NCBI GenBank assembly: GCA_964416765.1
Contig: CAYQEU010000002.1
Span: 14,877 to 78,876, forward strand
Origin: an uncultured Candidatus Saccharibacteria bacterium
Lineage (GTDB): Bacteria > Patescibacteriota > Doudnabacteria > UBA920
DNA: 64,000 nt
Direction of reading: 5' to 3'
The notes beneath the pieces were generated by a model. That model saw only the letters and a list, made by a program, of their open reading frames with translations, was not told the origin of the DNA and did no database searches. Made by a program: the position numbers and the translations under genes. The first letter of the stretch is position 1. Every line of letters begins with the position of its first letter. This document shows positions 1,607-37,014 of this stretch, piece after piece.

Positions 1607-1619
1607 TAGGTTTTTGCTT

Positions 1620-2741: not shown

Positions 2742-2762
2742 GTATGGGAAATAAAAATTTAC

Positions 2763-2839: not shown

Positions 2840-2846
2840 CTTACAA

Positions 2847-3077: not shown

Positions 3078-3095
3078 AAAAAATAGTTTTAATAA

Positions 3096-3171: not shown

Positions 3172-3182
3172 TCATAAAAAAT

Positions 3183-3210
3183 AAACCGCCCTTTTGGGCG
3201 GTTTTTTATT
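3183..3210. terminator. Bidirectional rho-independent terminator.
   Basis: ACCGCCC-tttt-GGGCGGT hairpin flanked by T-runs on both strands. It ends the tRNA unit on the plus strand and the minus-strand surface operon. Confidence 0.7.
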
Positions 3211-11759: not shown

Positions 11760-11801
11760 TCGCGAATAGGCAAAATGCGCATTAATACTACCATAAACTA
11801 A

Positions 11802-11810
11802 TGATATAAT
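11802..11810 (+). promoter_or_regulatory. Extended -10 promoter (TGaTATAAT) for a leaderless transcript.
   Basis: TATAAT at 11805-11810, only 7 nt before the ATG at 11818. Confidence 0.4.
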
Positions 11811-11817
11811 AAACATT

Positions 11818-12626: not shown

Positions 12627-13925
12627 ATGAAAATCTCCCTTCGAAGCCCGTTTAAGTTCGTTTCCGCGGTTTTAGTGGTCTTTTTGTTGGCCATGATCGC
12701 GCAAAAAGTCGCCCAAACCAATGCGGTCGGGAACATGACGCTATCAAAAGACACGCTTTCCAATTCCCGCCCCAGCGTTAGCACCACACTCGGTGCTGGC
12801 GTAACGGCTGGCGATACCGCCATTACCTTGGCTTCTTCCACGGGGATTTTGGCTGGGGATGTAATTACCCTTGCCGGTGGTACCCCGGAAAACCTAACCG
12901 TAGCCACAGTCACGGACGCAACCCACGTTGCCACTACTACCGCAGCAGCTAATGCCCACTCTAACGCCACAGCCGTCTATGACAAACAAACCTCGGTACA
13001 TACCTTTAGCTTTACTACCCGCTCCGCTGTTGCCAGCGGCAGCTTCCTTATAACTTTCCCGGTAGCCGGCTCCAACCAAAACGATGGTGTGCCAGATGCC
13101 GTGCACCAGTATGACTTTAACTCATTAGCTGGTACCGACGTTTCCGTTACTGGCTTTACCGCTGGAACCAAAACCATTACCGCTTCGGCCGGTACCGTAA
13201 GTATTGCCTTTTCCAGCTCTATTGCCGCTTCCACGGCAATTACTATTACCGTTGGTAGCACCAACAAACTATTAAACCCGCAGAAGAGCGCTTCTGCCGG
13301 TACTGCTGATATCGACGCCATCCGCGTGGACGAAAAGGATGCCAATGGCGTGGTAGATACTTCCAGCGTTGATGTAGGAATTATCGAATCACAGGTTATT
13401 ACCGTAAGTGTGTCCCCGACTTTGAGCTTCACCATTGCCGGCGTCGCTTCCGGCCAGACCGCTTTCGGCGCGACAAATACCAACGTAACTACTACAGCTA
13501 CAACGGTACCATTCGGCTCTATTAGCACCGCCACTCCATATTACGCGGCACAAGACCTTACAGTTAGCACCAACGCTGTGAGCGGATATAACGTAACGGG
13601 ATTCGAAGACGGCGCCCTGCGCAAAACCAACGGTACTACCATAACTGATTTCTCTACTACTCCTGGTGACAACAACGGTAACGATGGATTCGGCTACTCC
13701 GGACGTTCTACTTCCGGGACTGACTGTTCGGTGGTATACAATACTTCAGGCTCATTCTACTCCCGCGGCTTCGGTACTTCCGGTACTCCTGGCGGAGTTA
13801 TGACTAACGCTGGCCCTGTTTCCGGTTCTGTCTGCCGCGTTATCTACCGCGTGAGAGTCCCCGCCACCCAGGCTCCTGGAGACTACCAGAACGTAGTCAC
13901 CTACATCGCCACGCCGAGCTACTAA
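12627..13925 (+). CDS. WxL-like secreted surface protein (432 aa), paralog of 10650-11759.
   Basis: Signal peptide. Shared motifs 'TTNVTTTATTVPFG' and 'GALRKTNGTTI'. C-terminal '...PGDYQNVVTYIATPSY'. Confidence 0.7.
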   Translation: MKISLRSPFKFVSAVLVVFLLAMIAQKVAQTNAVGNMTLSKDTLSNSRPSVSTTLGAGVTAGDTAITLASSTGILAGDVITLAGGTPENLTVATVTDATHVATTTAAANAHSNATAVYDKQTSVHTFSFTTRSAVASGSFLITFPVAGSNQNDGVPDAVHQYDFNSLAGTDVSVTGFTAGTKTITASAGTVSIAFSSSIAASTAITITVGSTNKLLNPQKSASAGTADIDAIRVDEKDANGVVDTSSVDVGIIESQVITVSVSPTLSFTIAGVASGQTAFGATNTNVTTTATTVPFGSISTATPYYAAQDLTVSTNAVSGYNVTGFEDGALRKTNGTTITDFSTTPGDNNGNDGFGYSGRSTSGTDCSVVYNTSGSFYSRGFGTSGTPGGVMTNAGPVSGSVCRVIYRVRVPATQAPGDYQNVVTYIATPSY

Positions 13926-14538: not shown

Positions 14539-15810
14539 TTAACCTGCCATCCATAGCAGACACGCTAGCATGACCACGAAGGAGCTGTTAGCAATCATGC
14601 CCAGGTGCTGTATCTTGTAGTGCACCCCAATGGACACGGCCAGGAAAGTCATGAGTGCCACGATGCTGATGAGATAGAAGTTAAACTGGAAAGTATTGGT
14701 ATTAACCGTGTGTCCAAAGAAGTTCACGGAAGCACCCTTAACTGAAGGGGCAGAAAAGCTGGCTTCCAGAGTTGGAGCTATGCTGGCCAAGCGCGCGGTA
14801 ACAGTCTTGCCATTTATGTCGTAGGCAGTCAGGGTAACCGGTCCCGCAACCGGGGCGTATGAAGGCAGCACCATTTTCCAATTCCCATCGCCCGTTGGAT
14901 TCATCATGTAGGAATTTAAGCCGTAGGTGGCTATTACTTTTACCGCCCCTTGGCCCGCCGAAGTGGTAATGGTCAGCCCGGAATTTGTGGGCAAAATAAT
15001 TGAATTGCTCAGAGCCAGGGACGAATTAACTGCAGGGGCTGCAGTACTCGCGGCTGCTGCCGGTTGTTGCGCTGACTTGGCGGCAGGTAGCGCAGGCTGC
15101 TGGGCTTGGGCTACCGGGGCAGTTGCCGGAGCCACTTGGGTAGGCTCAGCCAGGGTCTTAACCTGAGGAGTGGAAGGTGTACCAAACATTTGGACTACAA
15201 AAATAGTATCGGCTCCCTCAAAGGTGCCTTCACTAATACCAATACCAATTTCCTCAAAATTGCGGTTTAAAATATTGGCGCGGTGGCCGGGAGAATTCAT
15301 CCAGGCGTCCTCAACGGTTTCCGCTTGGGTAAAATGTACAGCCAAGTTTTCACCGGCAGCCAGATAGGTGTAACCCGTGCCTTTGATCCAGTACCAGGGG
15401 TTATGGCCATCGGGGCTGTTGTGGGCAAAGTACTGCTTTTTTAACATATCATCCGCCTTGGCCTGCGCGGCCTTGGCGAGTTTAGCGTTATAGGTGAGGT
15501 CTTTGAGCCCATATTCCTGGCGGGATTGGTTAGTTAAGGCAATAACAGTATCTGAGGTAATAGCCGATGCATCAGCTATTTGGGGGCTAAGAGTAAGCAC
15601 TGGCAGGGCGATTGCGGCCACTTTGACGCTGATAAGCAGCAATGAAAAAAGGCCCAACACCCGGTGCCCTAAGACATGTGGGCGAAAGTCGTTGCCGGGG
15701 TGCGGAACTAAGTGGTCGTGAATAGAACGACCCAGTCGCGCGAACGTCGGAAACAACTCCCCTGTTGGTGAGCCTACAGATATAGCTAATTGACCTAACG
15801 CGTATTCCAT
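14539..15810 (-). CDS. CAP/SCP/PR1-like (YkwD-type) extracellular protein with N- and C-terminal TM segments.
   Basis: '...FAHNSPDGHNPWYWIKGTGY...GENLA...WMNSPGHRANIL...IGIGI' matches the CAP-domain signature. The exact start is uncertain. Confidence 0.65.
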   Translation of the reverse strand: MEYALGQLAISVGSPTGELFPTFARLGRSIHDHLVPHPGNDFRPHVLGHRVLGLFSLLLISVKVAAIALPVLTLSPQIADASAITSDTVIALTNQSRQEYGLKDLTYNAKLAKAAQAKADDMLKKQYFAHNSPDGHNPWYWIKGTGYTYLAAGENLAVHFTQAETVEDAWMNSPGHRANILNRNFEEIGIGISEGTFEGADTIFVVQMFGTPSTPQVKTLAEPTQVAPATAPVAQAQQPALPAAKSAQQPAAAASTAAPAVNSSLALSNSIILPTNSGLTITTSAGQGAVKVIATYGLNSYMMNPTGDGNWKMVLPSYAPVAGPVTLTAYDINGKTVTARLASIAPTLEASFSAPSVKGASVNFFGHTVNTNTFQFNFYLISIVALMTFLAVSIGVHYKIQHLGMIANSSFVVMLACLLWMAG

Positions 15811-16710: not shown

Positions 16711-16745
16711 CATCAAAACGCCCCAGAACGCAAGGGCTCTGGGGC
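16711..16745 (-). terminator. Rho-independent terminator after the 180-aa membrane protein gene.
   Basis: GCCCCAG...CTGGGGC hairpin followed, on the minus strand, by GTTTTGATG. Confidence 0.5.
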
Positions 16746-16765
16746 AATAAAAGGCTTAAAACAGG

Positions 16766-17308
16766 CTATTTATTGGAGTTTGTGGCCGGTTTGTTGGCGT
16801 TGCCACTTCCCGCGGCGTTGGAATTGGCGTTGGCGGGCTTTTTGGTGTTGGTATCGCCCGAGGGGCTGCTGCCTGTGTCTCCAAGGTTAACCGGAGCAAC
16901 TTCCTTTATCTTATTAAGCCTCTCGCTGAACAAAATGGCTTTCTTTGCTTGGGTGTAAATGAGGACCTTGTCGCCCACTTCCGCGGTGGCAAAGAAGGGC
17001 TGGTCCTTTAACGCTTCCAGGTCAGATACCGTGGCTATGGTCGGGGTTTCATCCGGCAGTACAATCAACTTGCCGACCTTGTCGAGCAACTCCTTGGTTT
17101 GGTCTTCGGTGGCTTTTTGCGGATTGGCCTTTAAGTCATTTAATTGCTGGCTCAAGGTTTGCACCCGGCGGTACTGCATGGCAAAGAAAATCGCAGCGGC
17201 CAACACTACCAGGATTACCAAGATCCAGGGGAGCATTCGCACGCCGCTCGCGCGTTGGACGTTGTCACCCGCATCGGACATTGCTTCATTTTTTTCTGTT
17301 TTTGGCAT
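16766..17308 (-). CDS. Membrane-anchored hypothetical protein (180 aa), last gene of the large surface operon.
   Basis: One TM segment. C-terminal low-complexity tail rich in N, A, K and G. Confidence 0.55.
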   Translation of the reverse strand: MPKTEKNEAMSDAGDNVQRASGVRMLPWILVILVVLAAAIFFAMQYRRVQTLSQQLNDLKANPQKATEDQTKELLDKVGKLIVLPDETPTIATVSDLEALKDQPFFATAEVGDKVLIYTQAKKAILFSERLNKIKEVAPVNLGDTGSSPSGDTNTKKPANANSNAAGSGNANKPATNSNK

Positions 17309-17414: not shown

Positions 17415-20400
17415 TTACGGGCTGGCGCTGCCGCCACCGCCACTGCCGCCACCGCCACCTGAAACGCCGCCGAAAGTTACTGTGGGCGCTGAGGTGTAAT
17501 TCATCCCGCCATTAGTAACATTTATCGCGGTAATCACATCGCCGGTCAGTACCGCCACAGCAGCTGCGCCCGTCCCTCCCCCATCGATAAAGTTTACTAC
17601 GGGGGCAATACCATAACTACTTCCTCCACATACCATGGTAACGGAAGTCACATGGTCCCCGGTGAGTATTGCTATTGCTATGGCGCTATTGCCACAGATG
17701 CCACCATTGCCGTCTGAACTGCCCCCGCCGGAGGAATTGCCGCTGCTGCCGCTGCCGCCTCCAGTGGGACCCCCGCCGCCGCCGTAAGAAACAAAGCCCC
17801 AACAGCTGCCATTATTTCCAATATTCACCAAGGTACCGTCATTGGTTATTGTAAATACTCCGCTGCAGCCGCTATCTTGCACGGAAAGATAAGAAAAGGA
17901 TGCAGTACCTGAAAGATCCATTAACCATTGCTGGCCCGGCGTATCTGAGCTTAAGGCTATAGGTCTTCCGGAAGTTCCCGTGACGGTTATACTATTTGCA
18001 AATGTGTAAGTCTTTCCGGCTTTAAATGTAAGAATTGAATTATCCGTAGTATCCGCGAAGTCATAAAAAGTTGTATCTGAGCTACCACCAACACTAGCCA
18101 CTCCTGTGGTACTGTTCGGTATTATAGTCACGCTACCATTGTTATGCGTAAACGTGCCGCTATTGCTAAGGTTCCCGGTAACAGTTAGGTTTGCCGGCGC
18201 AACAAATGTCCCGTTTGATATAGTTAATTCTCCGCCAAGGGTCGTTACTCCGGTTAAGGTGAGGGTACCGCTGCCAAGTTTGGTAAGACCAGCTGCTGAG
18301 CCAACCGTTCCGGCGAAGCTTACATCATTCCCATTGGTATCAATTATGGCTGTTTGGGTTAGCGTTACGGCTCTGTTAACAGGGGAAGTGATGTTGCCGG
18401 ATGCCTGCAAGGTTCCGCCATTAAAAATCAAAGTGTTGTTAACACCCCCGCTGCCCAGAGCAGCAGTCGCGTTTGCGACAATTGTGCCACCGCTGAGAGT
18501 TAGACTTCCTGTGAACGTATTGGCCCCAGAAAGCGTAAGAGTACCAGCACCGTCCTTAGTTAAGGTGCCGCTCGTAGTAGCAATGGCCCCGGTAATGGTG
18601 GTATCGCCCGCACCGCCAACAATTAGACTGCGCGCGTTGCCCGAAACTGAGGGGATAGTGAGTGACCCGCTGTCCGAATTTACACGAACCCCGGAAGAAC
18701 CAAGCGTTAGGGTTGCTTGAATAGCATTAGTATCACTAATGTTCCGTATCGCGCCAACATTATTTACTCCAGTACCGTTAGCAGTTATCAATTTGGTGCT
18801 TGGCAGGGTAATATTGCCCTGCAACTCCATTACCGCGCCTGATGTAATTGTTGTGGTAAGCGTGGTGCCGGACGCTCCCAACGCGTTGCTATTCTGCAGG
18901 TTGAGGTAGCCAGCGCTTAAAGCAATAGAAGTGCTCGTAAATGTATTGTCAGCGGATAAAGTAACCCTGCCCCCGGTGGTTTTGGAAATTCCTGCGGCAA
19001 CTGAACCTCCCAGTCGGGCGCTGACTAGGCCGCTTTGCAGGGCCGCGGTACCTGTTGTGGTCAAAACCGCGGTTGTTCCACCGGAATCTATTATTTGCCC
19101 GTCAGTTTGGAGGGTTATTATGCCGACGCTGTCGGAAATATTATTTAAGTCCAGAACTCCATTTACAACTGTTACGGCTCCGGTAGAAAGCATATTGGCT
19201 ACGCCATACTGCAAGGTTCCACCGCTAACAGTGGTTAACCCAGTGTGCCCCTGAGCGGAGGTGAACACAAGCGTGCCTGGGCCTGACTTGGTAATTGGCG
19301 CCGTTGTTACGGTTCCCGCTCCGCCCCAAGTGAGAACGGTACCCGGATTGGTAATGTCAAAGGTTGCGGCGATAGCGTTGGTGGTGGTGTAGGAGCGGTC
19401 AGTTGAAGCAGAACCGCCAGTATATTGCAGCGTTCCTACGGCTGTGTTAAATACGATATTGCCCGCTGCATTACTGGCTTGGCCAAGGTTGCCGGCCACG
19501 CCTCCGTTTCCAATAGTGCTGACACTTAAAGTTCCACCACTGATTGTGGTTATCCCGCTGTAAGTGTTAGTTCCGGCCAAAGTTACGGTCCCAGTAGTCG
19601 TCTTGGTCAAGTTTACAGCCCCTGCCAGGTTTGCGGTAATAGTGCCACTGGCCACTGCGTAAGAGCTTCCGGTAAAGGTTCCAGAACCGATGATGAATCC
19701 GCTGGTTAACGTTAATGTACCCAGCGTATCAGTGTAGGACTGAATATCCAGGGTGCCTCCCGCCACTGTTACCGCCGCCGAATCATTTATGATATTACTT
19801 GCCAAATATTGAACTGTGCCGGCATTAATAGTCAGCGTGCCCGTATTAGCAAATGTTTTGCTCAAAGTCAGTGAATCACCAGTACTCTTAGTCATGGCGA
19901 TTGCCGTGCCGCCCAACACCCCGCTAATACCACCGCCATAAAAAGTGTAGGCCGTGCCAGTAAGGACTCCCGGTGTACCGTTGCTGTCAGTAATCGTGCC
20001 GCCGTTTTGTATCGTTATGGCACCCACACTGTCAGTGTTACCATTGATATCAAGTATGCCACCGGCCACAGTGACAGCACCGGTGTTAATTGCGTTGGAG
20101 GTGCCATATTGTAAAGTCCCGCCGTTAATACGTGTTAAGCCGGTAGTGGTAGATGATCCGCTTAAAATTAAAGTGCCCGAGTCCCATTTAGTTAAAGTTG
20201 CTGAGGTCGCTGACGCCCCAAAAGACCCGGATATTGTAGTGGGACCACTGCCTCCCACTCCTAAGTTAATGGCGTTGGCTATCGTAACTGTACCAGTGAT
20301 ATTGATTGTCCCGCTGCCGTTGTTTGTAATGAGCGAGTTCGTGCTAACGGTCATGGCGCCGAAGTTATTATCGCTTCCGGCCGAACTGATTAAGGCCCCT

Positions 20401-23400
20401 CCATTTGCGATTCCTGTACCATTCAATGTTAGGGGTTCCCAAGTAGAGGCTCCGCCCACGACATAATTACTTAGATCGAGTACAGCTCCGGCAGACACAG
20501 TTACACCGCCCGCTATGGTACCAAGTGGCGTATTAGTAGCTCCGCCATTTGCTCCAACCTGAAGCACACCGGTGCTAACGGTCATGGCGCCGGTCATAGA
20601 GTTTTGCCCGGCGAGTACCAGCGTTCCAGACCCTTCTTTCACCAATGTCCCCGTACCTGACCAAACGCTGGCGGAAGATTGGGCAATATCACCCATGGTT
20701 ACGGTGGTTAACGCAAAGTTTCCCGAAATGGCACCGGCCAAAGTAAGAACACCACTGCCATAATTGGCTATGCGTGAAGCGGCACCAAGAGTAATAGCAC
20801 CGTTATACGATGTTGCGCTGCTTGAATTATTGATCAAGCTTCCTGTGCTTGCTATACCTGTTCCGTTTACTGTTAAGCTTTCAGTGGTGCTAAGGGTGTA
20901 GCCATTTAAATCGAGCATTGCGCCACTAGTAATAGTGGTAGCTCCACCTGTCGTTCCAAGTGGAGTGTTGGTACCGTCGCCTGCTGCTCCCAAGCGGAGG
21001 GTGCCCGCGCTTATTGTAGTCAGGCCGGTATATGAGCCAGAGCCGGATATTGTCCAGGTGCCAAGACCATTTTTAGTCAAGGTTCCAGTTGTGGTATTCA
21101 AATTGCTCGCCAATGTCCCATTTCCGGCGCCGCCGATTGTCAGTGCAAAAGTGTTCCCGGTTATATTTCCAGTGTTGGTAATATTAATATCCCCATAGTT
21201 CGAAATTATAGTGCTGGCAGCGCCCAAAGTAATAAGGCCGCTGTAGCTTGCAGCCACACTTGAATTATTCTGCAACGCACCCGTGGCCAAAGCGCCGCTC
21301 AAAGTGAGCGCTTCCGATGTAGCCAGCGTATATCCATTCAAATCAAGCGCGGATGAAGCACCAGAAATAGTGGTTCCGGCGGCCGTTGTTCCAAGCGGGG
21401 TGTTGGTACTGTCGCCCGTAGCCCCCAGTCTCAATGTTCCGGCACTCACCGTAGTCAAGCCTGTGTAAGTATTGTTGCCCGATAGCTCTAAAACCCCGGC
21501 GCCCGTGGATTTAGTCAGCGCGAAACTCCCACTAATGACAGCCGAAATTATCACGTCATTATCCATAAGACCATCACCAATATTAAAAGTACCACCAGCG
21601 CCCAGCGCCAGTTTACCAGTAATTAGGGTACTGACATTATTGTTGGCAATAGTGGTAAGCGCTCCCGTGGAAGTTGTTAGTGTACCAGCACCAGTTGTGA
21701 TGGCACCAGCATTTACAGTTAGCGCGCCGACTGTATCGGAATTGCCGGCTAAGTTATAGGTGCCGCCTACTATTGTTACACCTCCGCTTGAGATTGCATT
21801 ATTAACACCATAAGTCAGGGTCGCATTATTAACATAAGTGGTTCCGGTGTAGAGATTGGCCGCGCTAAGAGTAATGTTTCCCGGGCCATTCAGTGATAGT
21901 GACCCAGTTGTAGCGGTTCCAATTACAGCAGAGATAGTGGAACTGGCTGTGGCCAGGACATCCAGTTCAAAAGTTGTGATTCCCAAGGTAGTATTTGCAC
22001 CGGCAATATTATTGGCAGAGTTGATCAATACATTACCTGACAAAGAAGCGGAGGCTACAGGAAGAGTGACTCCACTCCCAGGGTTAGTGATATTAAAACC
22101 ATTTAAGATAAGTGAATTGGTATTTGTCGCTACTGCGGTGCGGTCCGCTGTTAATTTTACGTTGGCATTTGATGTAGCTAGATCGCCCGCATACTCGCCG
22201 GAAAACCCAGCGCCATTTAGCAAACGAAGCCCGTTGGTGTTGCCCACGTTGTAGGTGACCATATCACTTCCGGTACCCGTTAGGGAATTGTCCCCAAAAG
22301 CACCTTTGATAACACTAATGGTTTTTGAATTTGCTGATCCGCCGGCCCCAGTTAAGGTTGGAGTGGTGGAGAATATAAGCGAAGAAACGCCAGCCGCCGG
22401 GGTAGAGCCGAAATTAAGCCCACGGAACAGTACTGTAGCCCCGGCTGTACGGTTAAACCCTGGGTTATTGGCTACAGTCAAAGTCGTTCCGCTACCGCCG
22501 CTGCCGGCTTTTGGGTCTATGGTCACTATGTTATGTCCCGAAGCAAATGCCAATTGGCCAATTGTTTCAGTTACAGTGGTTGAATCTTTACCAATGAAGT
22601 TAAAGTTGCCGCCGTTCATGGTCAAAACCAATGCATTGCCCAAACGGTCAGCAACATTAGTGGTACTGTTATCAAGGGTCAACGTTGCGCCCAGGTTAAT
22701 GGTGATGGTAGTAGATACAGCAGTACCGTTGCCGCTTAGCACTAAAGTTCCCCCGTTAATTGCAGTCGTACTGCTAATAGTATTAGCCCCTGTTAAAGTA
22801 ACCGTGTTATTGGTGTTTTTTGCTACCGCGACCGCTCCTGCCAAAACCGCGCTAATGGTTCCGCTCTCCAGAGTATATCCAGTCGAGGTAAGAGTCCCGT
22901 TTTGAATGGTACCTCCCACAAGTGTAACCGTACCAACTGTGTCCGCCACTCCTCCCATGTCCCATGTCCCTCCTAAGATTGTCACCGGTGTGGCAGCCAA
23001 TAGGCCACTGGCGCCATAAGCAAAAGTACCGGAATAAACTCTGGTGGCTCCGGTATACGTGGCGGAACTATTGTTGGTTACTGTTCCGGCACCGTCCTTG
23101 CTGAATGTACCAGCCCCCATAGCCAATACACCGGTACTAAAGGTGGTATCGCCACCGCCTCCCACGTACAGCGAGAAAGCTCCGGTAACTCCACCGGTCA
23201 GCGTTAAAAGCCCAGATCCGGAATTTGTTATGCGCGAATCAGTTGCCTGAGTAATGGCTCCGCTATAACCGGTTGCGCTACTGGAATTGTTAATCAAAGC
23301 TCCGCCGCCATTTATTCCACGACCATTAAGCGTCAATGGTTCGGCTGCGGTCAGCGTAAATCCATTTAAATCTAATACCGCGCCGCTAAGCACAGAGGTG

Positions 23401-26400
23401 GCCCCTGACACGACGCCCAATGGCGTATTTGTACCTGAGCCTGCCGAGCCGATTATTAATGTTCCTACATTAACGCTAGTGGCACCCGTAAATGTGCTTG
23501 CGCCGGAAAGGGTCCAAGAACCGGTCCCAATCTTAGTAACCGTCCCGGTAGTGGTACCAATAATGCTGGATAGTGTACCGTTGCCTGTGCCACCAAGAGT
23601 TAAAGCCAATGCAGCCCCCGTTATGGTGCCGGAATTTGTTAAATTAATATCACCAAAATCCGCTTTAATGGTTGATGCCGAGCCAAGGGTAATTAGGCCG
23701 CTATATGTAACCGCAGAAGCGGAACTGTTCATAAGAACGCCGCTGGCAAAATCACCCAGACCATACCCGACACCGTTAATAGTGAGCGGTTCTGCCGCTG
23801 CTAGTGTATATCCATTTAAATCAAACCGAGCGCCGGCGGCAATTGTAGTAATACCGGCTACAGTACCGAGTGGGCTATTTGTGGCATCACCGGTACCTCC
23901 AAGTTTTAAGGTTCCGGCACTAATAGTGGTGGTACCCGTGTAAGAGTTACTGTTTGATGGAGTATAAGTACCGAACCCGTCTTTAGTAACCGTGGTAATA
24001 GTAGAAATAACCCCGGTTATATCAATATCACTAAACCCACCAACTGTAAGGGCAAAAGCACCGGAAATCCCCCCGCCTATGGTTATCTTGCCAAAATTAG
24101 CGCCAATACGACCAGTGTTATTTAACACTATATCGCCGTTCCAAGCCGCGGGAGTATTGGAAGTGTTGATCAGGGCGCCGCGTCCGCCAACCCCTGTTCC
24201 TCTCATTGTCAACGATTGGGCAGGATTGAGTGTAAAACCATTCATATCGAGCGTGGCACCATTGGCAATAGTGACACCACCAGCCGTTGTTCCAAGGGGA
24301 CCATATGTTCCATCACCGGCCGCGCCCAGTTGAAGAATTCCGCTGGTTACAGTTGTGGCACCTGTGTATACATTGTTCCTAGTCAGTATTACGGTGGCTT
24401 CTAGATTGGTGTTGGTGTTTATTTTTGTCACAGTTCCTGATCCGCCGATAATAGCGCTGATAGTGCCATCTCGAAGGCTATAAGATGTTCCGGTTAACAC
24501 CCCGGTCCCACCGGTAATAGTGCCGCCTTGAAGTGTTACAGCTCCAACGGCATTGTCGAAATTCCCAATATCCAAAGTTGAGCTATCTACAGTGACGGCA
24601 CTGGTGGACGGAATAGCATTGCTTACGCCAATGGTTAATTTCCCTCTATTGATTCTTGTCGCGCCAGTGTAACTCTTCGCGCTGGAAAAAGTCATGTTGC
24701 CCGCGCCGCTCTTTGTAAGACCGCCGCTAGTTGTAATATTTGCAGAAACATCAATGTCACCAACCATGCGCATGATAAACTCACTTGTCCCACCAGCTAA
24801 GGTCGTGTTGGCTCCGGCGATAACCGCGCCAGATGCGTGATTGATAATATTACCTGAAACAAAAGTTATTGTTTGCGGAGACCCCGGGTCCGTTATGCTT
24901 GCCCCGGTATCAAGGATTAAGGAATTAATTTGTGTGGTTGTTGCGGGTATAGAAGAAGAAAGCCGGACATTAGCATTGGTCACGGACATATCTGTTGTAT
25001 ATTCGTTGCTAAAGCCTGCGTGGTTCAATAAACGCAGTCCATTATTGTTGGCTCCGGATTCGTAAGTAACCATGTCGGTTCCGTCGCCAGAAGTGTCATT
25101 GTCGCCAAATACTCCTTGAAGAATACTTACGGTTGGAGTCCCCGGATTGCCATTATCACCCACCAAAGTCGGAGCCGTTTTAAACATTAGGGTCGATACG
25201 CCGGCACCAGGTGTAGAACCAAGGTTTGCCCCCCTAACCAACAACGACGCGCCTGCTGTGCGGGCAATTGACGCAAATCTTAGAACCGTAGACCCGCCTG
25301 AACCGGGATAAAAATTAATCTTGTTTTGTCCGGCACTAACAGTTAAGGCGCCTACTATGGACATAACACTGCCAGTAGAACTTCCATAAAGATTGAAGTC
25401 ACCGCCCGCCAGAGTTAGCGCCAGGGAATCTGACAAGCGATCCAGCTGTCCCGTTGTATTATCAATGTTAATGGCGCCGTCTGTGTTAATTTGCATAACC
25501 GTAGACTGGATTATGGAACCATTGCCGCTAAGAGTCAGCACCCCGTGGTTAACCGTCGTTGAACCCGTATAGGGATTAAAAGTATTTAGAGTCAAGGTTC
25601 CCGGTCCATTTTTTGTCAAAGTCCCAGCGCCAATGGCAATCGGACCGGTATCAAAGATTGTGTCTCCATCACCATCAACCGTCAAACCAAAAGCCCCTGT
25701 AACTCCTCCGTTAGAGATAGTCAGGGTAGCGCCCGCATCTGATTCAATAGTTGATGCCGCGGTCTGGGTGATTAGTCCCGTAATGGTATTGTTACCGTTT
25801 TGATTTTCAATTGCCCCGGCATTAATGAGCCCGGTGCCAGAGATAGATATGAATTCCGGGATCGACATTCCGTTGCCGTCAATAACCAAAGTAGCACCTG
25901 AGGTTACGGTTGTAACTCCGTCCACAGTACCCAGCGCTAAACTATTTTGAATACTCAAGATGCCGGCCGAAACAGAAACTGCCCCGGTGAATAAATTAGC
26001 CCGGGTCAACGTAACCGTTCCGGTGCTAGATTTAGTCAGGGTGCCGCCGGGACCGCCAAGTACAGCACTTATATTTCCGGCATAGACGGTGAAGGCGGCG
26101 CTGCTCAAAACTCCGGATGTCCCGGTAATTGTTCCGGATTGCCCGTCTAACGTGCCGAGCGTTACTGTACCAACCATGTCTGAATAGGAGGAAATATTCA
26201 AAGTCCCCGCAGTTACCGTAACAGCCCCCGAAAGGATCGCGTTATGGGTACCGTAAAGTAAGGTGCCCGCATTTACTGTTGTTAAGCCAGTGTAAGTATT
26301 GGGAAAATTATAAGTTAAGGTCCCACTTCCATTTTTTGTAACCGTCCCCGCGGCAGTACCAATAGGGGTAGTGGAATATGTGATATTACCGGCACCGTCA

Positions 26401-27236
26401 ATCAGCAAGGGAAAAGCCCCGGCCATACCGCCGGTTATGGTCAGCGTTCCGGCATCCGAATATATCTCTGCTCCGCCGGCAATCATGGTAATCAAGCCGC
26501 CGAAAGTATTGCTGTCGCTAACATTACGCAGAGCGCCTCCGCCGGCAACTCCATACCCTCTCAAAGCCAAAGGTTCATAACCAATATTTACACCTCCCTG
26601 TAGCTCCAAAGCGGAACCTCCGACTACTTCAGTACCAAGGGCGATACTGCCCAATGCTGTAGCGTTTTGGGCGTTTAGGGTACCCACATTAATTTTGGTT
26701 ACGCCGCCATAAGTGTTAGCGCCAGAAAGCACCAGTTTACCCGTTCCCTCTTTGTTAATACCGCCAACGCCGCCAATTCTGCCGCTGATAGTTAAAACTT
26801 CGGAAGTATTTGTTACAAAAATATCCCTGGTCACATCAAGGCGCATATCCAAACTAATTGTATTGCCCCCAGAGGAAGCACTGTCGGTAATTCCAGCCAG
26901 TCCCTGGCCGAGAATAAGTGGATTGCCGGAAAGATTATATCCGCTGCCGGAAAGAGTTATGGAATTGAAGATGGTATTTTCCGTAAGGTCGTTTACGCTA
27001 GAAAGATTTGAGGCCCCGGCAGGAAACACCAAATCATCGCCGGTGGCGGGGGCAGTGCCTCCCCAGTTGCTGGCATCTGACCATGAGCTGCTTGTAGTAC
27101 CGGTCCATGTTCTAACTGCAGCTTGGGCCCGGTTAACATTTCCGAAAAAAACAAAACCAGCCAGAAAGAACACCCCCACATAAAGCAGTGGTCTTATATA
27201 AGCAAAGGAAAATATTTTTTGTGCTCTGTTTCCCAT
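17415..27236 (-). CDS. Giant beta-helical adhesin-like surface protein (about 3270 aa) with at least 16 autotransporter-associated beta-strand (PATR-like) repeats.
   Basis: Signal peptide 'MGNRAQKIFSFAYIRPLLYVGVFFLAGFVFFGNVNRAQA'. Recurrent 'GxGTLxLxGxNTYTGxTTVxxGTL' units (NTYTGLTTVNAGTL, NSYTGTTTISAGTL, NTYSGITTISGGTL and others). A Gly-rich C-terminal linker precedes two ~38-aa repeats. The ORF track start at 27296 would overlap the upstream gene; the ATG at 27236 is preferred. Confidence 0.85.
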   Translation of the reverse strand: MGNRAQKIFSFAYIRPLLYVGVFFLAGFVFFGNVNRAQAAVRTWTGTTSSSWSDASNWGGTAPATGDDLVFPAGASNLSSVNDLTENTIFNSITLSGSGYNLSGNPLILGQGLAGITDSASSGGNTISLDMRLDVTRDIFVTNTSEVLTISGRIGGVGGINKEGTGKLVLSGANTYGGVTKINVGTLNAQNATALGSIALGTEVVGGSALELQGGVNIGYEPLALRGYGVAGGGALRNVSDSNTFGGLITMIAGGAEIYSDAGTLTITGGMAGAFPLLIDGAGNITYSTTPIGTAAGTVTKNGSGTLTYNFPNTYTGLTTVNAGTLLYGTHNAILSGAVTVTAGTLNISSYSDMVGTVTLGTLDGQSGTITGTSGVLSSAAFTVYAGNISAVLGGPGGTLTKSSTGTVTLTRANLFTGAVSVSAGILSIQNSLALGTVDGVTTVTSGATLVIDGNGMSIPEFISISGTGLINAGAIENQNGNNTITGLITQTAASTIESDAGATLTISNGGVTGAFGLTVDGDGDTIFDTGPIAIGAGTLTKNGPGTLTLNTFNPYTGSTTVNHGVLTLSGNGSIIQSTVMQINTDGAINIDNTTGQLDRLSDSLALTLAGGDFNLYGSSTGSVMSIVGALTVSAGQNKINFYPGSGGSTVLRFASIARTAGASLLVRGANLGSTPGAGVSTLMFKTAPTLVGDNGNPGTPTVSILQGVFGDNDTSGDGTDMVTYESGANNNGLRLLNHAGFSNEYTTDMSVTNANVRLSSSIPATTTQINSLILDTGASITDPGSPQTITFVSGNIINHASGAVIAGANTTLAGGTSEFIMRMVGDIDVSANITTSGGLTKSGAGNMTFSSAKSYTGATRINRGKLTIGVSNAIPSTSAVTVDSSTLDIGNFDNAVGAVTLQGGTITGGTGVLTGTSYSLRDGTISAIIGGSGTVTKINTNTNLEATVILTRNNVYTGATTVTSGILQLGAAGDGTYGPLGTTAGGVTIANGATLDMNGFTLNPAQSLTMRGTGVGGRGALINTSNTPAAWNGDIVLNNTGRIGANFGKITIGGGISGAFALTVGGFSDIDITGVISTITTVTKDGFGTYTPSNSNSYTGTTTISAGTLKLGGTGDATNSPLGTVAGITTIAAGARFDLNGYTLAAAEPLTINGVGYGLGDFASGVLMNSSASAVTYSGLITLGSASTIKADFGDINLTNSGTITGAALALTLGGTGNGTLSSIIGTTTGTVTKIGTGSWTLSGASTFTGATSVNVGTLIIGSAGSGTNTPLGVVSGATSVLSGAVLDLNGFTLTAAEPLTLNGRGINGGGALINNSSSATGYSGAITQATDSRITNSGSGLLTLTGGVTGAFSLYVGGGGDTTFSTGVLAMGAGTFSKDGAGTVTNNSSATYTGATRVYSGTFAYGASGLLAATPVTILGGTWDMGGVADTVGTVTLVGGTIQNGTLTSTGYTLESGTISAVLAGAVAVAKNTNNTVTLTGANTISSTTAINGGTLVLSGNGTAVSTTITINLGATLTLDNSTTNVADRLGNALVLTMNGGNFNFIGKDSTTVTETIGQLAFASGHNIVTIDPKAGSGGSGTTLTVANNPGFNRTAGATVLFRGLNFGSTPAAGVSSLIFSTTPTLTGAGGSANSKTISVIKGAFGDNSLTGTGSDMVTYNVGNTNGLRLLNGAGFSGEYAGDLATSNANVKLTADRTAVATNTNSLILNGFNITNPGSGVTLPVASASLSGNVLINSANNIAGANTTLGITTFELDVLATASSTISAVIGTATTGSLSLNGPGNITLSAANLYTGTTYVNNATLTYGVNNAISSGGVTIVGGTYNLAGNSDTVGALTVNAGAITTGAGTLTTSTGALTTIANNNVSTLITGKLALGAGGTFNIGDGLMDNDVIISAVISGSFALTKSTGAGVLELSGNNTYTGLTTVSAGTLRLGATGDSTNTPLGTTAAGTTISGASSALDLNGYTLATSEALTLSGALATGALQNNSSVAASYSGLITLGAASTIISNYGDINITNTGNITGNTFALTIGGAGNGTLASNLNTTTGTLTKNGLGTWTISGSGSYTGLTTISAGTLRLGAAGDGTNTPLGTTGGATTITSGAMLDLNGYTLSTTESLTVNGTGIASTGSLINNSSSATSYNGAITLGAASRIANYGSGVLTLAGAISGNFALTTVTMGDIAQSSASVWSGTGTLVKEGSGTLVLAGQNSMTGAMTVSTGVLQVGANGGATNTPLGTIAGGVTVSAGAVLDLSNYVVGGASTWEPLTLNGTGIANGGALISSAGSDNNFGAMTVSTNSLITNNGSGTINITGTVTIANAINLGVGGSGPTTISGSFGASATSATLTKWDSGTLILSGSSTTTGLTRINGGTLQYGTSNAINTGAVTVAGGILDINGNTDSVGAITIQNGGTITDSNGTPGVLTGTAYTFYGGGISGVLGGTAIAMTKSTGDSLTLSKTFANTGTLTINAGTVQYLASNIINDSAAVTVAGGTLDIQSYTDTLGTLTLTSGFIIGSGTFTGSSYAVASGTITANLAGAVNLTKTTTGTVTLAGTNTYSGITTISGGTLSVSTIGNGGVAGNLGQASNAAGNIVFNTAVGTLQYTGGSASTDRSYTTTNAIAATFDITNPGTVLTWGGAGTVTTAPITKSGPGTLVFTSAQGHTGLTTVSGGTLQYGVANMLSTGAVTVVNGVLDLNNISDSVGIITLQTDGQIIDSGGTTAVLTTTGTAALQSGLVSARLGGSVAAGISKTTGGRVTLSADNTFTSTSIALSAGYLNLQNSNALGASGTTLTTTITSGAVMELQGNITLPSTKLITANGTGVNNVGAIRNISDTNAIQATLTLGSSGVRVNSDSGSLTIPSVSGNARSLIVGGAGDTTITGAIATTSGTLTKDGAGTLTLSGANTFTGSLTLSGGTIVANATAALGSGGVNNTLIFNGGTLQASGNITSPVNRAVTLTQTAIIDTNGNDVSFAGTVGSAAGLTKLGSGTLTLTGVTTLGGELTISNGTFVAPANLTVTGNLSNSGTFTHNNGSVTIIPNSTTGVASVGGSSDTTFYDFADTTDNSILTFKAGKTYTFANSITVTGTSGRPIALSSDTPGQQWLMDLSGTASFSYLSVQDSGCSGVFTITNDGTLVNIGNNGSCWGFVSYGGGGGPTGGGSGSSGNSSGGGSSDGNGGICGNSAIAIAILTGDHVTSVTMVCGGSSYGIAPVVNFIDGGGTGAAAVAVLTGDVITAINVTNGGMNYTSAPTVTFGGVSGGGGGSGGGGSASP

Positions 27237-27252
27237 TGGGTTGATGTGCAAT

Positions 27253-29892
27253 TTAAGGGGTAGGGCCTGCACCTTCGGTTGCGGCAGATAAATCATCTTC
27301 CTGAGCGGTTGTGTTGTCTTCCGGAACGGTCGTGCTATCTCCGGCTACAGTGCCGGTATCTTCAGTAGGCGGCTCCTGGGCTGCTTGGGGTAATGAGTAA
27401 GTTACAATCGTGTAATTACCCGATGATTGGGTTATTACGGAAAGCTGATTATGGCTAAAAGTGTTGTAGCCCTCTTCTTTTGCTATTACCAAATAGTGGA
27501 CAATTGCCGGATTAGGCGTACCGTCTACGCCAAATGACTTGATAATAAACCCGGCGTAATTGCCGTTCTGGTCTTTTTTCCATGAGGCAATCTGGACGAA
27601 TACTGGACCATCACCCTCCGGAGTAAGCTGAACGACAGGTTTTCCGCTGCTAAGGTTGTGGCTGAATGTAATTTCAGCAGTCCCATCCGTTTCCGTGGCG
27701 ATTGAGCCGGCGAAGGTATCGTCTTGCATACTAATTAGGTTTTTGACGGCAACGACGCCCTGGGCATCAACGCTAAACAATTTACTATTGTCGGCGCTGA
27801 CCACGAACAACGTTTCAGAGGGGCTGTTGGGGCTGACATTGATTTCAGTAGCGCCATTATTGCGGACCAGCATGCGGCTAGTTTGCTGGTTTTGGACATT
27901 CAGAATATCCCCGCTTCCGTTTTGGTTTATCAAATAGGCCGCGGCATTGGTGGTGCTGGCAATCAGCTGAGTAGCCATTGTGCCGCGCTGTACATTTACG
28001 GAATTGTTAAACAGGTCAACCGTCTGGGTGGGATCATAATATATCGGGTTAACAAACACCAAAACCGTATTTCCGCTTAAACCGTTAAAGGAAGCTAAGG
28101 CTTGGCCGATCACCTTGCCGGGAGCTGTAGCTTTCATGGCATACCCGGGAATGGTAGCCGAACTGGTTAAGTAATCTCCGGGCTGGATAGTGCCATTTTC
28201 GATGGTTGCTTTAACCCGGACACGGCCAACCAATGCTACCGGTTGAGGATTGTCAGTAGGGTTAATGTTGTGGCCAATGCTGTTAAAGTCCCCGGCGTCT
28301 TCAATATTGGAAACCACTCCCACGAGATTGCTTTGGTAAGCGGAAGTTGTCTTAACCACTTTTACCAACCGGTCTCCCTGGGTGGTGGTTACATAGTTTG
28401 TTCCTGAGCTCACTACGTCAGCGGTTTGTATGTTGGGTTCAGCCGGATAAAATTCCATGTAGTCAGCGCCCGGTCCCGGGTTACAATCTTTAATAGCATC
28501 TAATCCCGTACCGTTTGTGTCATGGCACAAGGTAAAGTTGCCCGTGGACGAAGCAAGGTTGACGCTGGTGTTTCCGCTGTTGTCCACTTTAAACTTCGTG
28601 GTTCCTCCCGACTTGGCATTGATGAAGTTACCCGAGGCAAAAGTGCCGGAGTTGTTAGCAACATCAAACAATAATAAATTGCCGGTGTAGGCGCTAGATT
28701 CCTGGTAAATATCCACCATATCCGCGCTGGTCGCGTCATTGGTATAAGCACGGATGGCATTGCCGCGGGTTTTCGTGGTAGAATTCGCGCCGTTGTCCAA
28801 GTCCGCATATATGGCAGCTGGCTGAACTATGGAAGCTGCCTGGGACGTAGTGGTAGCCTGAAGGCCGAAAGTATAACCATAGCTGGCAATGCCAGTATTA
28901 ACCCCGTTTACATTGGAGCCGCTGTAGGCCTGGACTTCCAATCCCCGGACCACCTGCCCGGTGCCAAGCGAAGAATTATCAATCATTCTAATAAACTGGC
29001 CGTCGTAAGTTCCCGCCTGGCTGCCGCTGCTGGGAATTGTTGAAATGAACCGATTACCAAACTCAAAACCGGAAGCGGTCGCATTGCTCAGCGTATAATC
29101 TCCGAATATGCCTGCAATCGCGCTGCTGCCGCTGCTTGTAATGCTGTTAGTCAAAGTCAGGAGACCCTGTGACTGGATGCCGCCCGAACCCACACTAAGG
29201 TAAGTGCCCACGTTCAAGGCGCCGCCCGTTGTCACATCGCCGCCGGAGAAGTTAAAACCGGCGGAACTTCCAGTAGCCGTAAAGGTGGTTAGTCCGGCTG
29301 ATGAAACACCTAAAGTAAGCAGGTTGGAACCGTCGTAAGCAAGTGTAGCCTGGGGTACTGTTGTGTTGGTAAGGTAAATTATGCCATTGCCCTGGAGACT
29401 GTTGGCTATCATGGCCGCCGGAACCGCGCCCAGTGTTCTGCGAGGGGACATTTCCCCATCCCAGGACGGGGAACCGGTGCCGCCAATGTTGACTCCCAAA
29501 TAAAGCGTCTGGTTAAAGTCCACGCCGCTTAATGAAGTGACTTCGCCCAGCATAACGCTGAATACCCCATTTGTTATCTGCACCTTGTTAGCACCCGTGC
29601 GGGTTTCTGTCCAAAGCGCGGCTCCCCCGGTGGATACGTTGTACAATTTGAATTCTATGTTGTACTGTCCATCAGCAACCGCAACGTTGCTTAGGTTAGT
29701 AAGTTTGGCCTGGTAACTAATTTGGTTATTAATCCCTGTGGCCTGTGCCGTGCTTCCAGGCAAGGAAAGACCGAGAAGAATGAACAGTGCCACCGCGCAA
29801 AGCATGCCCATGGCAAAAGTAGATATGACAAGGGGGTGTTGACGGGTGGGCATGGCAGTAACCAGGCGCCAATTAAAAGCTGGGCGGTTCAT
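27253..29892 (-). CDS. Surface protein (879 aa), paralogous at both termini to the 1503-aa protein.
   Basis: N-terminal TM. Module 'LWTETRTG...NGVFSVMLG...DGEMSPR'. Conserved block 'LVGVVS...PVALVGRVRVKATIENGTIQPGDYLTSSATIPGYAMKA'. Shared C-terminal module. Confidence 0.8.
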   Translation of the reverse strand: MNRPAFNWRLVTAMPTRQHPLVISTFAMGMLCAVALFILLGLSLPGSTAQATGINNQISYQAKLTNLSNVAVADGQYNIEFKLYNVSTGGAALWTETRTGANKVQITNGVFSVMLGEVTSLSGVDFNQTLYLGVNIGGTGSPSWDGEMSPRRTLGAVPAAMIANSLQGNGIIYLTNTTVPQATLAYDGSNLLTLGVSSAGLTTFTATGSSAGFNFSGGDVTTGGALNVGTYLSVGSGGIQSQGLLTLTNSITSSGSSAIAGIFGDYTLSNATASGFEFGNRFISTIPSSGSQAGTYDGQFIRMIDNSSLGTGQVVRGLEVQAYSGSNVNGVNTGIASYGYTFGLQATTTSQAASIVQPAAIYADLDNGANSTTKTRGNAIRAYTNDATSADMVDIYQESSAYTGNLLLFDVANNSGTFASGNFINAKSGGTTKFKVDNSGNTSVNLASSTGNFTLCHDTNGTGLDAIKDCNPGPGADYMEFYPAEPNIQTADVVSSGTNYVTTTQGDRLVKVVKTTSAYQSNLVGVVSNIEDAGDFNSIGHNINPTDNPQPVALVGRVRVKATIENGTIQPGDYLTSSATIPGYAMKATAPGKVIGQALASFNGLSGNTVLVFVNPIYYDPTQTVDLFNNSVNVQRGTMATQLIASTTNAAAYLINQNGSGDILNVQNQQTSRMLVRNNGATEINVSPNSPSETLFVVSADNSKLFSVDAQGVVAVKNLISMQDDTFAGSIATETDGTAEITFSHNLSSGKPVVQLTPEGDGPVFVQIASWKKDQNGNYAGFIIKSFGVDGTPNPAIVHYLVIAKEEGYNTFSHNQLSVITQSSGNYTIVTYSLPQAAQEPPTEDTGTVAGDSTTVPEDNTTAQEDDLSAATEGAGPTP

Positions 29893-30134: not shown

Positions 30135-30263
30135 TTTATGTAATTTTGTTTTTGTTTCTTTGATTTATGGCTAATTTTGGCCAAAAACCATATTCGCTAT
30201 CCGATACTTTTCTAACCTAAGTATACCAGAAAATAGACAAATTGTCAATATTTAAGCCTGTAT

Positions 30264-35404: not shown

Positions 35405-35550
35405 TTCTGTTTGACAGCAAGATAGCGAAAAGAAAGTGTAATACAATTACGTCGTTTCAGTATTGTGCATCTATATAGATAGATGACGACCACGGAATGT
35501 CCTAGTTCGGATTCGAAAATCAACGAACATCAGAAATTATATTCCTTAGA

Positions 35551-37014
<1,464 letters not shown>

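Follow-up and report, generated by a model that had tools for sequence, protein, structure and literature searches.

Comparison with described systems

Type Va autotransporters such as IcsA, ShdA and BmaC carry a Sec signal peptide, a Gly/Thr-rich beta-strand stalk with a repeat of 30-32 aa and, at the C-terminus, a linker and a 12-stranded barrel. Here we describe a giant protein of 3273 aa which resembles them in the signal peptide, the stalk and the repeat, and which also shares their probable beta-helix fold and, putatively, their adhesin-type role. It is encoded on the minus strand of a 64-kb stretch of DNA from an uncultured bacterium (contig CAYQEU010000002.1, positions 14,877 to 78,876), which is referred to as the window and from whose first letter all positions are counted. 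Unlike the type Va proteins, the giant has neither the barrel nor its linker, is several times longer and belongs to a lineage held to be free of an outer membrane; at the place of the barrel are a cap module, a Gly linker, 38-aa repeats and a poly-Gly-Pro tail. We consider that it is probably a rod-shaped cell-surface fibre, and likely an adhesin, of a Patescibacteria bacterium.

PATR repeats had been called characteristic of Gram-negative type V passengers in the first-pass annotation of this gene, which is too strong, as PATR proteins of PEP-CTERM type and from Actinomycetota and Omnitrophota are on record. Among the close PATR relatives of the giant are proteins of Opitutus/Verrucomicrobia with a PEP-CTERM (PF07589) anchor and others whose annotation is Actinomycetota, and Omnitrophota giants with up to 38 PATR copies have been described. 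NCBIfam's present name for the corresponding model, TIGR02601, is "beta strand repeat protein", and pipelines of the Joint Genome Institute already label close fragments "autotransporter-associated beta strand protein". The PATR proteins of Verrucomicrobia/Opitutus, Omnitrophota and Actinomycetota are similar to the giant in having a multi-copy stalk without a barrel and a lineage-specific C-terminal module, and some non-autotransporter PATR proteins (P0026, P0038) also share a 270-aa non-PATR module with it. The giant differs from these proteins in three respects: 1) it has no PEP-CTERM or other signal modelled in NCBIfam, 2) its host belongs to the Candidate Phyla Radiation (CPR), and 3) its gene lies between g879 and g180 in a locus of WxLIP type, and both this locus and the two genes are confined to its clade.

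Giant proteins with an FhaB domain (COG3210) have been reported from Patescibacterium danicum and other Patescibacteria; they are predicted to be beta-helical and were proposed to act in adhesion or host interaction (PMC11809585). Their homologues elsewhere carry autotransporter beta-domains, and in the same study no full-length homologues were found across Patescibacteria, for which rapid reshuffling was suggested (PMC11809585). In contrast, the family of the giant is conserved and collinear across no fewer than 19 species-level genomes, and its defining feature is PATR and not FhaB/two-partner secretion (TPS) domains. No TPS domain was detected on the giant with Pfam and no TpsB-like partner was seen; g180 had no match in Pfam or NCBIfam, and g879 none in Pfam, NCBIfam or PHROG.

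In the WxL/WxLIP complexes of Firmicutes, a transmembrane-anchored DUF916/WxLIP_PGBD protein has as neighbours small secreted proteins that come in pairs and have a C-terminal beta-domain in common. A locus of this kind surrounds the giant gene, and some orthologues of the giant bear the 165-aa domain of that locus. Unlike in the Firmicutes loci, no WxL domain (PF13731), LPXTG partner or sortase was seen in the window, and the giant of the window is itself without the 165-aa domain. Its end, ...GGGGSGGGGSASP, is not an LPXTG motif followed by a hydrophobic segment and a basic tail. Tapirin of Caldicellulosiruptor (PDB 6n2b) is comparable as a Sec-exported beta-helix adhesin on a cell free of an outer membrane; however, tapirins have no sequence relationship to the giant, are about ten times shorter and are without PATR.

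The giant is a member of the PATR/TIGR02601 family and is not a type V autotransporter, a TpsA, an LPXTG or a PEP-CTERM protein. In the literature on Patescibacteria autotransporters and autotransporter-associated beta strands we found no description of this CPR family, its operon or its C-terminal cassette, and a literature search for WxL in CPR returned no papers. The stalk is ordinary for the family, and PATR repeats without a barrel would be of little surprise to a specialist; the monoderm context, the conserved three-gene unit, the phage-type 38-aa domain and the poly-Gly-xP and DxGF termini are undescribed.

Repeat structure and predicted fold of the stalk

Pfam PATR (PF12951) matched the giant with E=1.9e-58 and 194.5 bits (cut-off 27) in 16 stretches, and NCBIfam TIGR02601 with E=1.1e-88 and 290.2 bits (cut-off 19.85) in 18 stretches. 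The at least 16 PATR-like repeats counted in the first-pass annotation are thereby borne out, and every motif string quoted there is present in the protein. A hidden Markov model (HMM) built from the giant's own units delimited 21 full-length units of 28-33 aa each (Table 1); this count is circular, as the model came from the giant itself, and serves to delimit coordinates, which does not apply to the PF12951 and TIGR02601 counts. The start-to-start spacing of the units is mostly 94-150 aa and reaches about 300 aa at two places, each of which holds a copy of the non-PATR module of about 270 aa, the two copies being 46% identical across 272 aa (E=6e-61). Matches above cut-off and periodic units in a beta-strand-rich stalk are thus both found, as expected of this repeat family, and no Pfam or NCBIfam domain besides PATR/TIGR02601 was detected on the giant.

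Residues 540-972 were modelled with AlphaFold2 (AF2), with an alignment of PATR relatives as input. The model was all-beta with short regular strands and had a mean predicted local distance difference test (pLDDT) score of 73.7, with values >90 over the PATR-rich third and low confidence at residues 671-747, inside copy 1 of the non-PATR module. A phmmer search of the giant against PDB sequences gave no match. PATR passengers fold as a beta-helix and, by analogy with their known structure, it is likely that the stalk of the giant is a right-handed beta-helix. Since such helices rise by about 0.02 nm per residue, the fibre would be roughly 50-70 nm long.

Gene integrity and orthologues

The giant gene occupies 17415..27236 on the minus strand and comprises 3273 codons followed by a TAA stop at 17415-17417. 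The uninterrupted open reading frame (ORF) extends to 17415..27296 (minus strand), 3293 codons counted from the first ATG, and its Met21 at 27236 is preferred as the start for three reasons: it lies 16 nt past the stop of g879 (TAA at 27253-27255), the alternative ATG at 27296 falls within g879, and the start at 27236 yields the N-terminus that is kept in orthologues. The upper end of the interval first annotated is therefore the better start. This N-terminus is a Sec-type signal peptide whose n-region, h-region and AxA-A(T/V)RTWTG junction (the hyphen marks the cleavage site) are conserved in orthologues, in line with the Sec secretion proposed earlier and here predicted from sequence.

Homologues of the giant were searched for with pieces of 361 aa and 433 aa, and loci were scanned in one genome per GTDB species. 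Relatives of the giant were encoded in 21 loci, 19 of them at 54-66% identity, with one Omnitrophota protein at 34%. Fifteen orthologous ORFs were complete (3001-5727 aa), and they aligned with the giant of the window in single collinear high-scoring segment pairs (HSPs) of 2500-3200 residues, at 56-66% identity. With such complete collinear ORFs in other genomes, the gene first annotated with about 3270 codons is regarded as intact and not as a pseudogene. Its internal DNA repeats are just 60-79% identical across 42-64 nt, indicating that the array is old and diverged and has been neither recently expanded nor collapsed. A recent repeat expansion of the Periscope type, in which strains differ in copy number owing to tandem repeats with high DNA identity, was rejected on these identities and on the collinearity in single HSPs.

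The metagenome-assembled genomes (MAGs) that carry orthologues are labelled Paceibacterota, Nomurabacteria, Moraniibacteriota, "Patescibacteria group" and "Saccharibacteria", and the best match to the C-terminal 361 aa was a protein of a "Patescibacteria group bacterium". It was also noticed that the same giant orthologue is encoded on contigs of four loci (L005, L008, L013 and L014) whose label is "uncultured Gammaproteobacteria bacterium", and that two of these (L013 and L014) also have the WxLIP-type neighbourhood seen in CPR MAGs; the Gammaproteobacteria labels of these automated third-party annotation assemblies are probably wrong.

The C-terminal cassette

The stalk is followed by a cap module whose invariant motifs in the alignment (A5) are NGTFTH, DSxC and GNNGxCW, and which the giant has in common with the Patescibacteria protein P0001 and with P0002, P0003, P0005 and P0006. 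The cap profile matched 7048 representative clusters, mostly proteins of 1000-7700 aa. The Gly-rich linker and the two C-terminal repeats of about 38 aa reported in the first-pass annotation are both present behind it (Table 1), and no C-terminal beta-barrel was found by Pfam or NCBIfam, again as annotated: searches for the translocator barrel (PF03797, TIGR01414) on the whole giant and on its last 261 aa gave none at E up to 10.

In the AF2 model the two 38-aa repeats jointly form one small six-stranded beta domain (mean pLDDT 82.8, core 90-97). This domain matched no Pfam family, and a Foldseek search against PDB returned nothing significant, the best hits being ATPase N-terminal barrels (E=0.85). 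It did match ten PHROG families at E-values as low as 5e-11, with annotations for head closure, baseplate wedge, tail fibre and other virion structural proteins, and in BFVD the matches were structural proteins of cyanophages and other phages, with a template modelling (TM) score of 0.66-0.73, 30-50% identity and E down to 4e-7. Cellular proteins carry the 38-aa repeat in long arrays or in fusion with a PilX N-terminal domain or a phage cement domain. The form GGxGY..xPxVxF.GGGG.GA.A.A was seen on P0004, P0007, P0010, P0013, P0014 and P0016, and the carriers of the repeat comprise phage neck, baseplate wedge, tail fibre and cement proteins as well as pilus-associated and cell-surface proteins. 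From these matches, the domain is a promiscuous module shown on exposed surfaces, which suggests a binding function. It is widespread on phage virions and cell fibres, without a Pfam family or a matching solved structure.

Behind the cap and the Gly linker the orthologues vary: they have zero, two or four of the 38-aa repeats, or another domain, and then end either at a poly-Gly-xP stop or in a poly-Gly-D-x-G-F tail with 20-35 aromatic/basic residues. The first form, poly-Gly plus 1-3 residues plus a terminal Pro, was found in at least 33 of the 147 best cap-family members (P0056-P0202) and also in L015, L017, P0001, P0003, P0005 and P0006; examples on giant proteins sharing the cap module are GGGGGGSP, GGGGGDAP and GGGGSASP, each directly followed by the stop. 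The alternative, poly-Gly-[DS]-x-G-[FY] with a 20-35-aa aromatic/basic tail (e.g. GGGGGDIGFLYKIKRMLVFSEPFGLSIFRKYL), was present in at least 6 of the 147; it was located on the giants of eight loci (L003, L004, L006, L007, L009, L010, L012 and L016) and on P0002, P0112, P0148, P0156, P0170 and P0179. A few proteins (P0063, P0194 and P0199) combine both forms, with GGGGGGASP followed by a short hydrophobic tail. At least 10 of the 147 end in the 165-aa domain, and several in beta-domain tails annotated as FlgD/Vpr Ig-like in a spirochaete. The DxGF aromatic tail looks like a sorting or anchor signal and is not matched by any NCBIfam or Pfam model; when the poly-Gly ends and aromatic tails of the giant and its orthologues were scanned with NCBIfam up to E=10, no known sorting signal came out.

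The exchange is most evident in L013 and L014, whose giants end in the 165-aa domain instead of the repeat cassette. This domain is homologous (E=1e-25 to 1e-33) to the C-termini of the two small secreted proteins beside the WxLIP-type gene, and thus links the giant to that locus. In iterated jackhmmer searches, the window proteins g432, g445 and, more weakly, g216 were placed in the same family, which is a beta-domain at the C-terminus ending in ...AG.Y...(I/L).Y......(F/Y)-stop. Its members occur in pairs beside DUF916/WxLIP-type genes, are sometimes fused to giant beta-helix proteins and, in the searches run, came almost only from Patescibacteria, with one match labelled Eisenbacteria. No Pfam family corresponds to the domain, none of its 102 profile matches carries any Pfam domain, and its profile had no match in PDB; the label "WxL-like" for it rests on genomic context only.

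Because the cassette is variable among otherwise collinear orthologues, can be swapped for the 165-aa domain and falls into recurring classes of terminus, it is regarded as the probable determinant of anchoring. These comparisons show that bacteria have the stalk in common and that the module at its end is swapped from one type of envelope to another: Proteobacteria have a beta-barrel there, Verrucomicrobia PEP-CTERM, other diderms Ig-like tails, and CPR poly-Gly-xP, aromatic or 165-aa ends.

Host lineage and envelope

The window contains a complete 16S rRNA gene without an adjacent 23S gene, a CPR hallmark (Table 1). The genes for tRNA-Ile(GAT) and tRNA-Ala(TGC), usually part of the rRNA spacer, are located at 2763-3171 on the plus strand, about 32 kb from the 16S gene and on the opposite strand; the lone 16S gene and these distant tRNA genes indicate that the rRNA operon is split. 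PilM/PilO-type genes are also present in the window. Orthologues in CPR MAGs together with these hallmarks identify the organism as a Patescibacterium. It is the accepted proposal that Patescibacteria have no outer membrane (PMC12102498), so that the "presumably monoderm" host of the first-pass annotation fits at the level of the lineage. The 40 ORFs of the window that were scanned included no Omp85-type gene. Five tandem T4SS_pilin paralogues (PF18895, VirB2-like; E=1e-9 to 1e-12) were noted at 59523-62373 on the minus strand, and they fit the monoderm-type type IV secretion system reported as widespread in Patescibacteria.

Conserved gene order around the giant gene

Homologues of g879 were found upstream of the giant in 11 loci, and a homologue of g180 directly downstream of it in 13. 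Based on this conserved order, the 16-nt gap between g879 and the giant, and consensus matches to a promoter and a terminator (Table 1), we infer that g879, the giant and g180 form one transcription unit. With 1500-2900 aa, the g879 homologues of related loci far exceed g879 in length. In L001 (about 8900-9000) the giant seems fused in frame with a g180-like domain, which was rejected as an artefact of the ORF crossing a masked run of N.

A WxLIP-type homologue was located about 2.5 kb downstream of the giant in 10 loci. Of the adjacent WxL/DUF916-like proteins put forward in the first-pass annotation as a possible anchor, DUF916/WxLIP_PGBD is indeed adjacent and is syntenic in these 10 related loci, and a WxL domain (PF13731) was not found. 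In related loci the gene order is a g879-like gene, a class-A beta-lactamase-fold gene (PF13354, E=4e-39), the giant, g180, two genes for secreted proteins of about 350 aa, the WxLIP-type gene, a Big_6/dockerin-like gene, two genes for membrane proteins and genes for solute-binding proteins. The window differs in an insertion between g180 and the WxLIP block, which encodes a CAP-domain protein, a NUDIX protein and others. The class-A beta-lactamase/Peptidase_S11-like gene (e.g. L007:8226-9170) is conserved in 10 loci, where it separates the g879-like gene from the giant; a search of the window for this neighbour showed it to be absent. A role of its product in wall attachment or remodelling is possible.

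Probable surface fibre and alternative explanations

Members of the CPR/Patescibacteria are ultra-small, mostly uncultured epibionts, and their means of holding on to a host beyond type IV pili are largely unknown. As a probable surface fibre, the giant would act as follows. With no outer membrane to cross, Sec export alone would place it outside the cell, and no type V translocator would be needed. Retention is most likely non-covalent, via the exchangeable repeat/poly-Gly-SASP cassette, and the partner may be the wall or a surface layer, the presumably co-transcribed g180, or proteins of the WxLIP-type system. The fibre, with a predicted length that would make up much of an ultra-small cell's diameter, would then mediate contact with the host cell or a substrate. 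On this reading, the locus is a concrete candidate for CPR host attachment, conserved across many species and with defined operon partners, and the C-terminal cassette is a testable entry into the attachment of CPR surface proteins; if none of this holds, the giant is a well-documented new example of a known repeat family that annotation pipelines had already detected in the lineage.

Several points weigh against the surface fibre. One third of the stalk model is of low confidence, and a Foldseek search with it against PDB returned nothing significant (best E=0.016, TM-score <=0.27); on the supporting side, the non-significant list consists of beta-helix proteins, namely IgA1 protease, Hbp, Ag43, pertactin, UpaB, EspC and SepA, the TpsA proteins HMW1 and HpmA, antifreeze beta-helices, tapirin, pectinases and fucoidan lyase. 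The mature giant has no transmembrane segment, LPXTG motif, lipobox (judged from the sequence) or NCBIfam-modelled sorting signal, so that an anchor is not recognisable, and unlike some orthologues it has neither the DxGF aromatic tail nor the 165-aa domain. A Pfam search up to E=10 for a WxL domain (PF13731) in the neighbouring proteins and in the C-terminal domain of L013 gave none. The monoderm state is taken over from the lineage, as the genome is represented by 64 kb, and the putative adhesion role is drawn from analogy. Given that no anchor is recognisable, the giant could simply be released.

Such a released exoprotein, shed after signal-peptide cleavage and serving as a biofilm scaffold or a soluble binding protein rather than staying on the producer, is on the unlikely side. 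It would account for the mature sequence just described, and any wall binding by the C-terminal repeats is hypothetical. Yet the cassette is conserved and exchangeable, with a 165-aa domain shared with proteins of the WxLIP locus among its forms; the small membrane protein g180, whose gene appears to be co-transcribed, is kept in position in 13 loci; and relatives in other lineages bear true anchoring signals at the same place.

Instead of being retained non-covalently, the surface fibre might, speculatively, be processed or covalently attached by a mechanism that recognises its poly-Gly-xP end. More specifically, it is conceivable, and in our opinion doubtful, that the extreme C-terminus is an undescribed protein-sorting or wall-attachment signal of Patescibacteria. 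A dedicated enzyme would then cleave giant fibres or transpeptidate them onto the cell wall, a candidate being the protein with a class-A beta-lactamase/penicillin-binding-protein fold whose gene immediately precedes that of the giant in 10 related genomes. The poly-Gly-xP end would be a processed or minimal form of the signal, as hinted at by the proteins in which GGGGGGASP and a tail are combined, and the phage-type 38-aa repeat domain would be the distal binding module. A search of the window, translated in all six frames, showed no sortase signature TLxTC. Should poly-Gly-xP or DxGF turn out to act as a sorting signal, the attachment of surface proteins would be opened to study in an entire bacterial superphylum.

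A structural component of the CPR surface layer or sheath, instead of a dedicated adhesin, is unlikely. The large locus encodes almost wholly secreted and wall-associated proteins, and the strong conservation of order and length, without the rapid shuffling typical of host-range adhesins, would be consistent with such a component. On the other hand, proteins that form a surface-layer lattice are not typically single rods of >3000 aa with a flexible linker and, at the end, a binding-type module, and the C-terminus of the giant differs between species. A beta-helical enzyme (polysaccharide lyase or hydrolase) or an FhaB/CdiA-like toxin-delivery exoprotein is decidedly unlikely: beta-helices often house glycan-degrading sites, pectinases and fucoidan lyase occur in the weak Foldseek list and FhaB-like giants are reported in Patescibacteria, but no catalytic, TPS (haemagglutination activity) or toxin domain was found by Pfam or NCBIfam, the C-terminus is a 38-aa repeat domain plus poly-Gly with no toxin-immunity pair, and a TpsB-like partner is lacking. 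That the gene is a pseudogene, a chimera assembled from repeats or part of a contaminating contig of a Gram-negative organism is hardly credible: long repetitive genes are easily misassembled and the judgement is made on assembled sequence, but the frame is open over 9.8 kb without a stop, repeat collapse is unlikely at the given divergence of the DNA repeats, collinear orthologues occur in independent assemblies, and the 16S gene and CPR-type genes lie on the same contig.

Features of the window

The coordinates of the giant's parts and of the genes around it are listed in Table 1.

Table 1. Parts of the giant protein and features of the surrounding 64-kb window (residues are those of the 3273-aa protein; i-E, independent E-value of the HMM built from the giant's own units)
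Feature	Position (residues)	Strand	Basis or remark
Signal peptide, MGNRAQK + hydrophobic core + NVNRAQA-AV	27120..27236 (1-39)	-	read by eye from sequence
Beta-strand-rich stalk with all PATR units	18198..27119 (40-3013)	-	17% Gly, 17% Thr, 10% Ser, 8% Asn
PATR unit 1	26664..26759 (160-191)	-	self-HMM i-E=2.8e-15; family via PF12951 and TIGR02601
PATR unit 2, NTYTGLTTVNAGTL	26247..26342 (299-330)	-	self-HMM i-E=3.2e-15
PATR unit 3	25944..26039 (400-431)	-	self-HMM i-E=1.5e-14
PATR unit 4, NPYTGSTTVNHGVL	25524..25619 (540-571)	-	self-HMM i-E=2.9e-15
Non-PATR module, copy 1	24720..25523 (572-839)	-	also in P0026, P0038
PATR unit 5, KSYTGATRINRGKL	24627..24719 (840-870)	-	self-HMM i-E=1.4e-15
PATR unit 6, NVYTGATTVTSGIL	24321..24416 (941-972)	-	self-HMM i-E=1.4e-12
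PATR unit 7, NSYTGTTTISAGTL	23895..23990 (1083-1114)	-	self-HMM i-E=2.0e-15
PATR unit 8, STFTGATSVNVGTL	23448..23540 (1233-1263)	-	self-HMM i-E=1.9e-14
PATR unit 9	23010..23102 (1379-1409)	-	self-HMM i-E=7.3e-15
PATR unit 10	22731..22820 (1473-1502)	-	self-HMM i-E=8.3e-11
Non-PATR module, copy 2	21891..22730 (1503-1782)	-	sequence comparison with copy 1
PATR unit 11	21807..21890 (1783-1810)	-	self-HMM i-E=1.9e-12
PATR unit 12, NTYTGLTTVSAGTL	21420..21512 (1909-1939)	-	self-HMM i-E=2.1e-14
PATR unit 13, GSYTGLTTISAGTL	20985..21080 (2053-2084)	-	self-HMM i-E=2.5e-15
PATR unit 14	20550..20639 (2200-2229)	-	self-HMM i-E=6.0e-15
PATR unit 15	20100..20195 (2348-2379)	-	self-HMM i-E=1.6e-15
PATR unit 16	19806..19892 (2449-2477)	-	self-HMM i-E=3.5e-11
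PATR unit 17, NTYSGITTISGGTL	19518..19610 (2543-2573)	-	self-HMM i-E=8.8e-12
PATR unit 18	19203..19295 (2648-2678)	-	self-HMM i-E=1.2e-15
PATR unit 19	18891..18989 (2750-2782)	-	self-HMM i-E=6.1e-10
PATR unit 20	18468..18563 (2892-2923)	-	best Pfam and TIGRFAM stretch
PATR unit 21	18198..18287 (2984-3013)	-	self-HMM i-E=4.6e-10
Cap module, NSGTFTHNNG ... DSGCSG ... GNNGSCWGF, invariant Cys pair	17784..18227 (3004-3151)	-	alignment A5
Gly/Ser-rich linker, GGGGPTGGGSGSSGNSSGGGSSDGNGG	17700..17780 (3153-3179)	-	low pLDDT in model
Two ~38-aa repeats, A.A.A.LTGD.V..I.V..GG..Y...P.V.F.GG	17460..17699 (3180-3259)	-	sequence and AF2
Poly-Gly tail, GGGGGSGGGGSASP-COOH	17418..17459 (3260-3273)	-	ends GGGGSASP
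Sigma-70-like promoter match, TTGACA-17-TATACT with TG, upstream of g879	30220..30248	-	11/12 positions; best of region, consensus match only
g879, 879-aa secreted or membrane protein, ends ...GAGPTP	27253..29892	-	stop 16 nt before giant's start
g180, 180-aa single-pass membrane protein, ~100-aa outside domain	16766..17308	-	sequence
Intrinsic-terminator-like hairpin (11 bp, 7 GC) and T run	16719..16746	-	20 nt past g180 stop; region's best, consensus match only
CAP/SCP-domain protein, hydrophobic C-terminal segments	14539..15810	-	PF00188 E=1e-21; not at this position in related loci
Secreted protein with 165-aa C-terminal domain, second	12627..13925	+	jackhmmer E=1.3e-37
Secreted protein with 165-aa C-terminal domain	10650..11987	-	jackhmmer E=1.1e-32
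DUF916/WxLIP-type protein: signal peptide, WxLIP_PGBD, C-terminal transmembrane segment, basic tail	9605..10621	-	PF06030 E=6.6e-12, 46 bits (cut-off 27.3)
Second WxLIP-type protein, C-terminal transmembrane segment	32306..33283	-	PF06030 E=2.3e-4, below cut-off; clusters with 9605-10621 protein
Small secreted protein, weaker member of 165-aa domain family	33288..33938	-	jackhmmer E=3.6e-5
16S rRNA gene, complete, no adjacent 23S	35550-37013	-	CPR hallmark

The region is a surface-protein island. Further secreted proteins are encoded on the minus strand: one of 1503 aa (4932-9443) matched no known family and is similar in one part to a segment beside the g879-like gene of related loci; one of 1137 aa (47669-51082) carries a DUF11 domain; and those at 3721-4911 and 3206-3718 gave weak matches to Big_13 and TIG, both below the Pfam cut-off.

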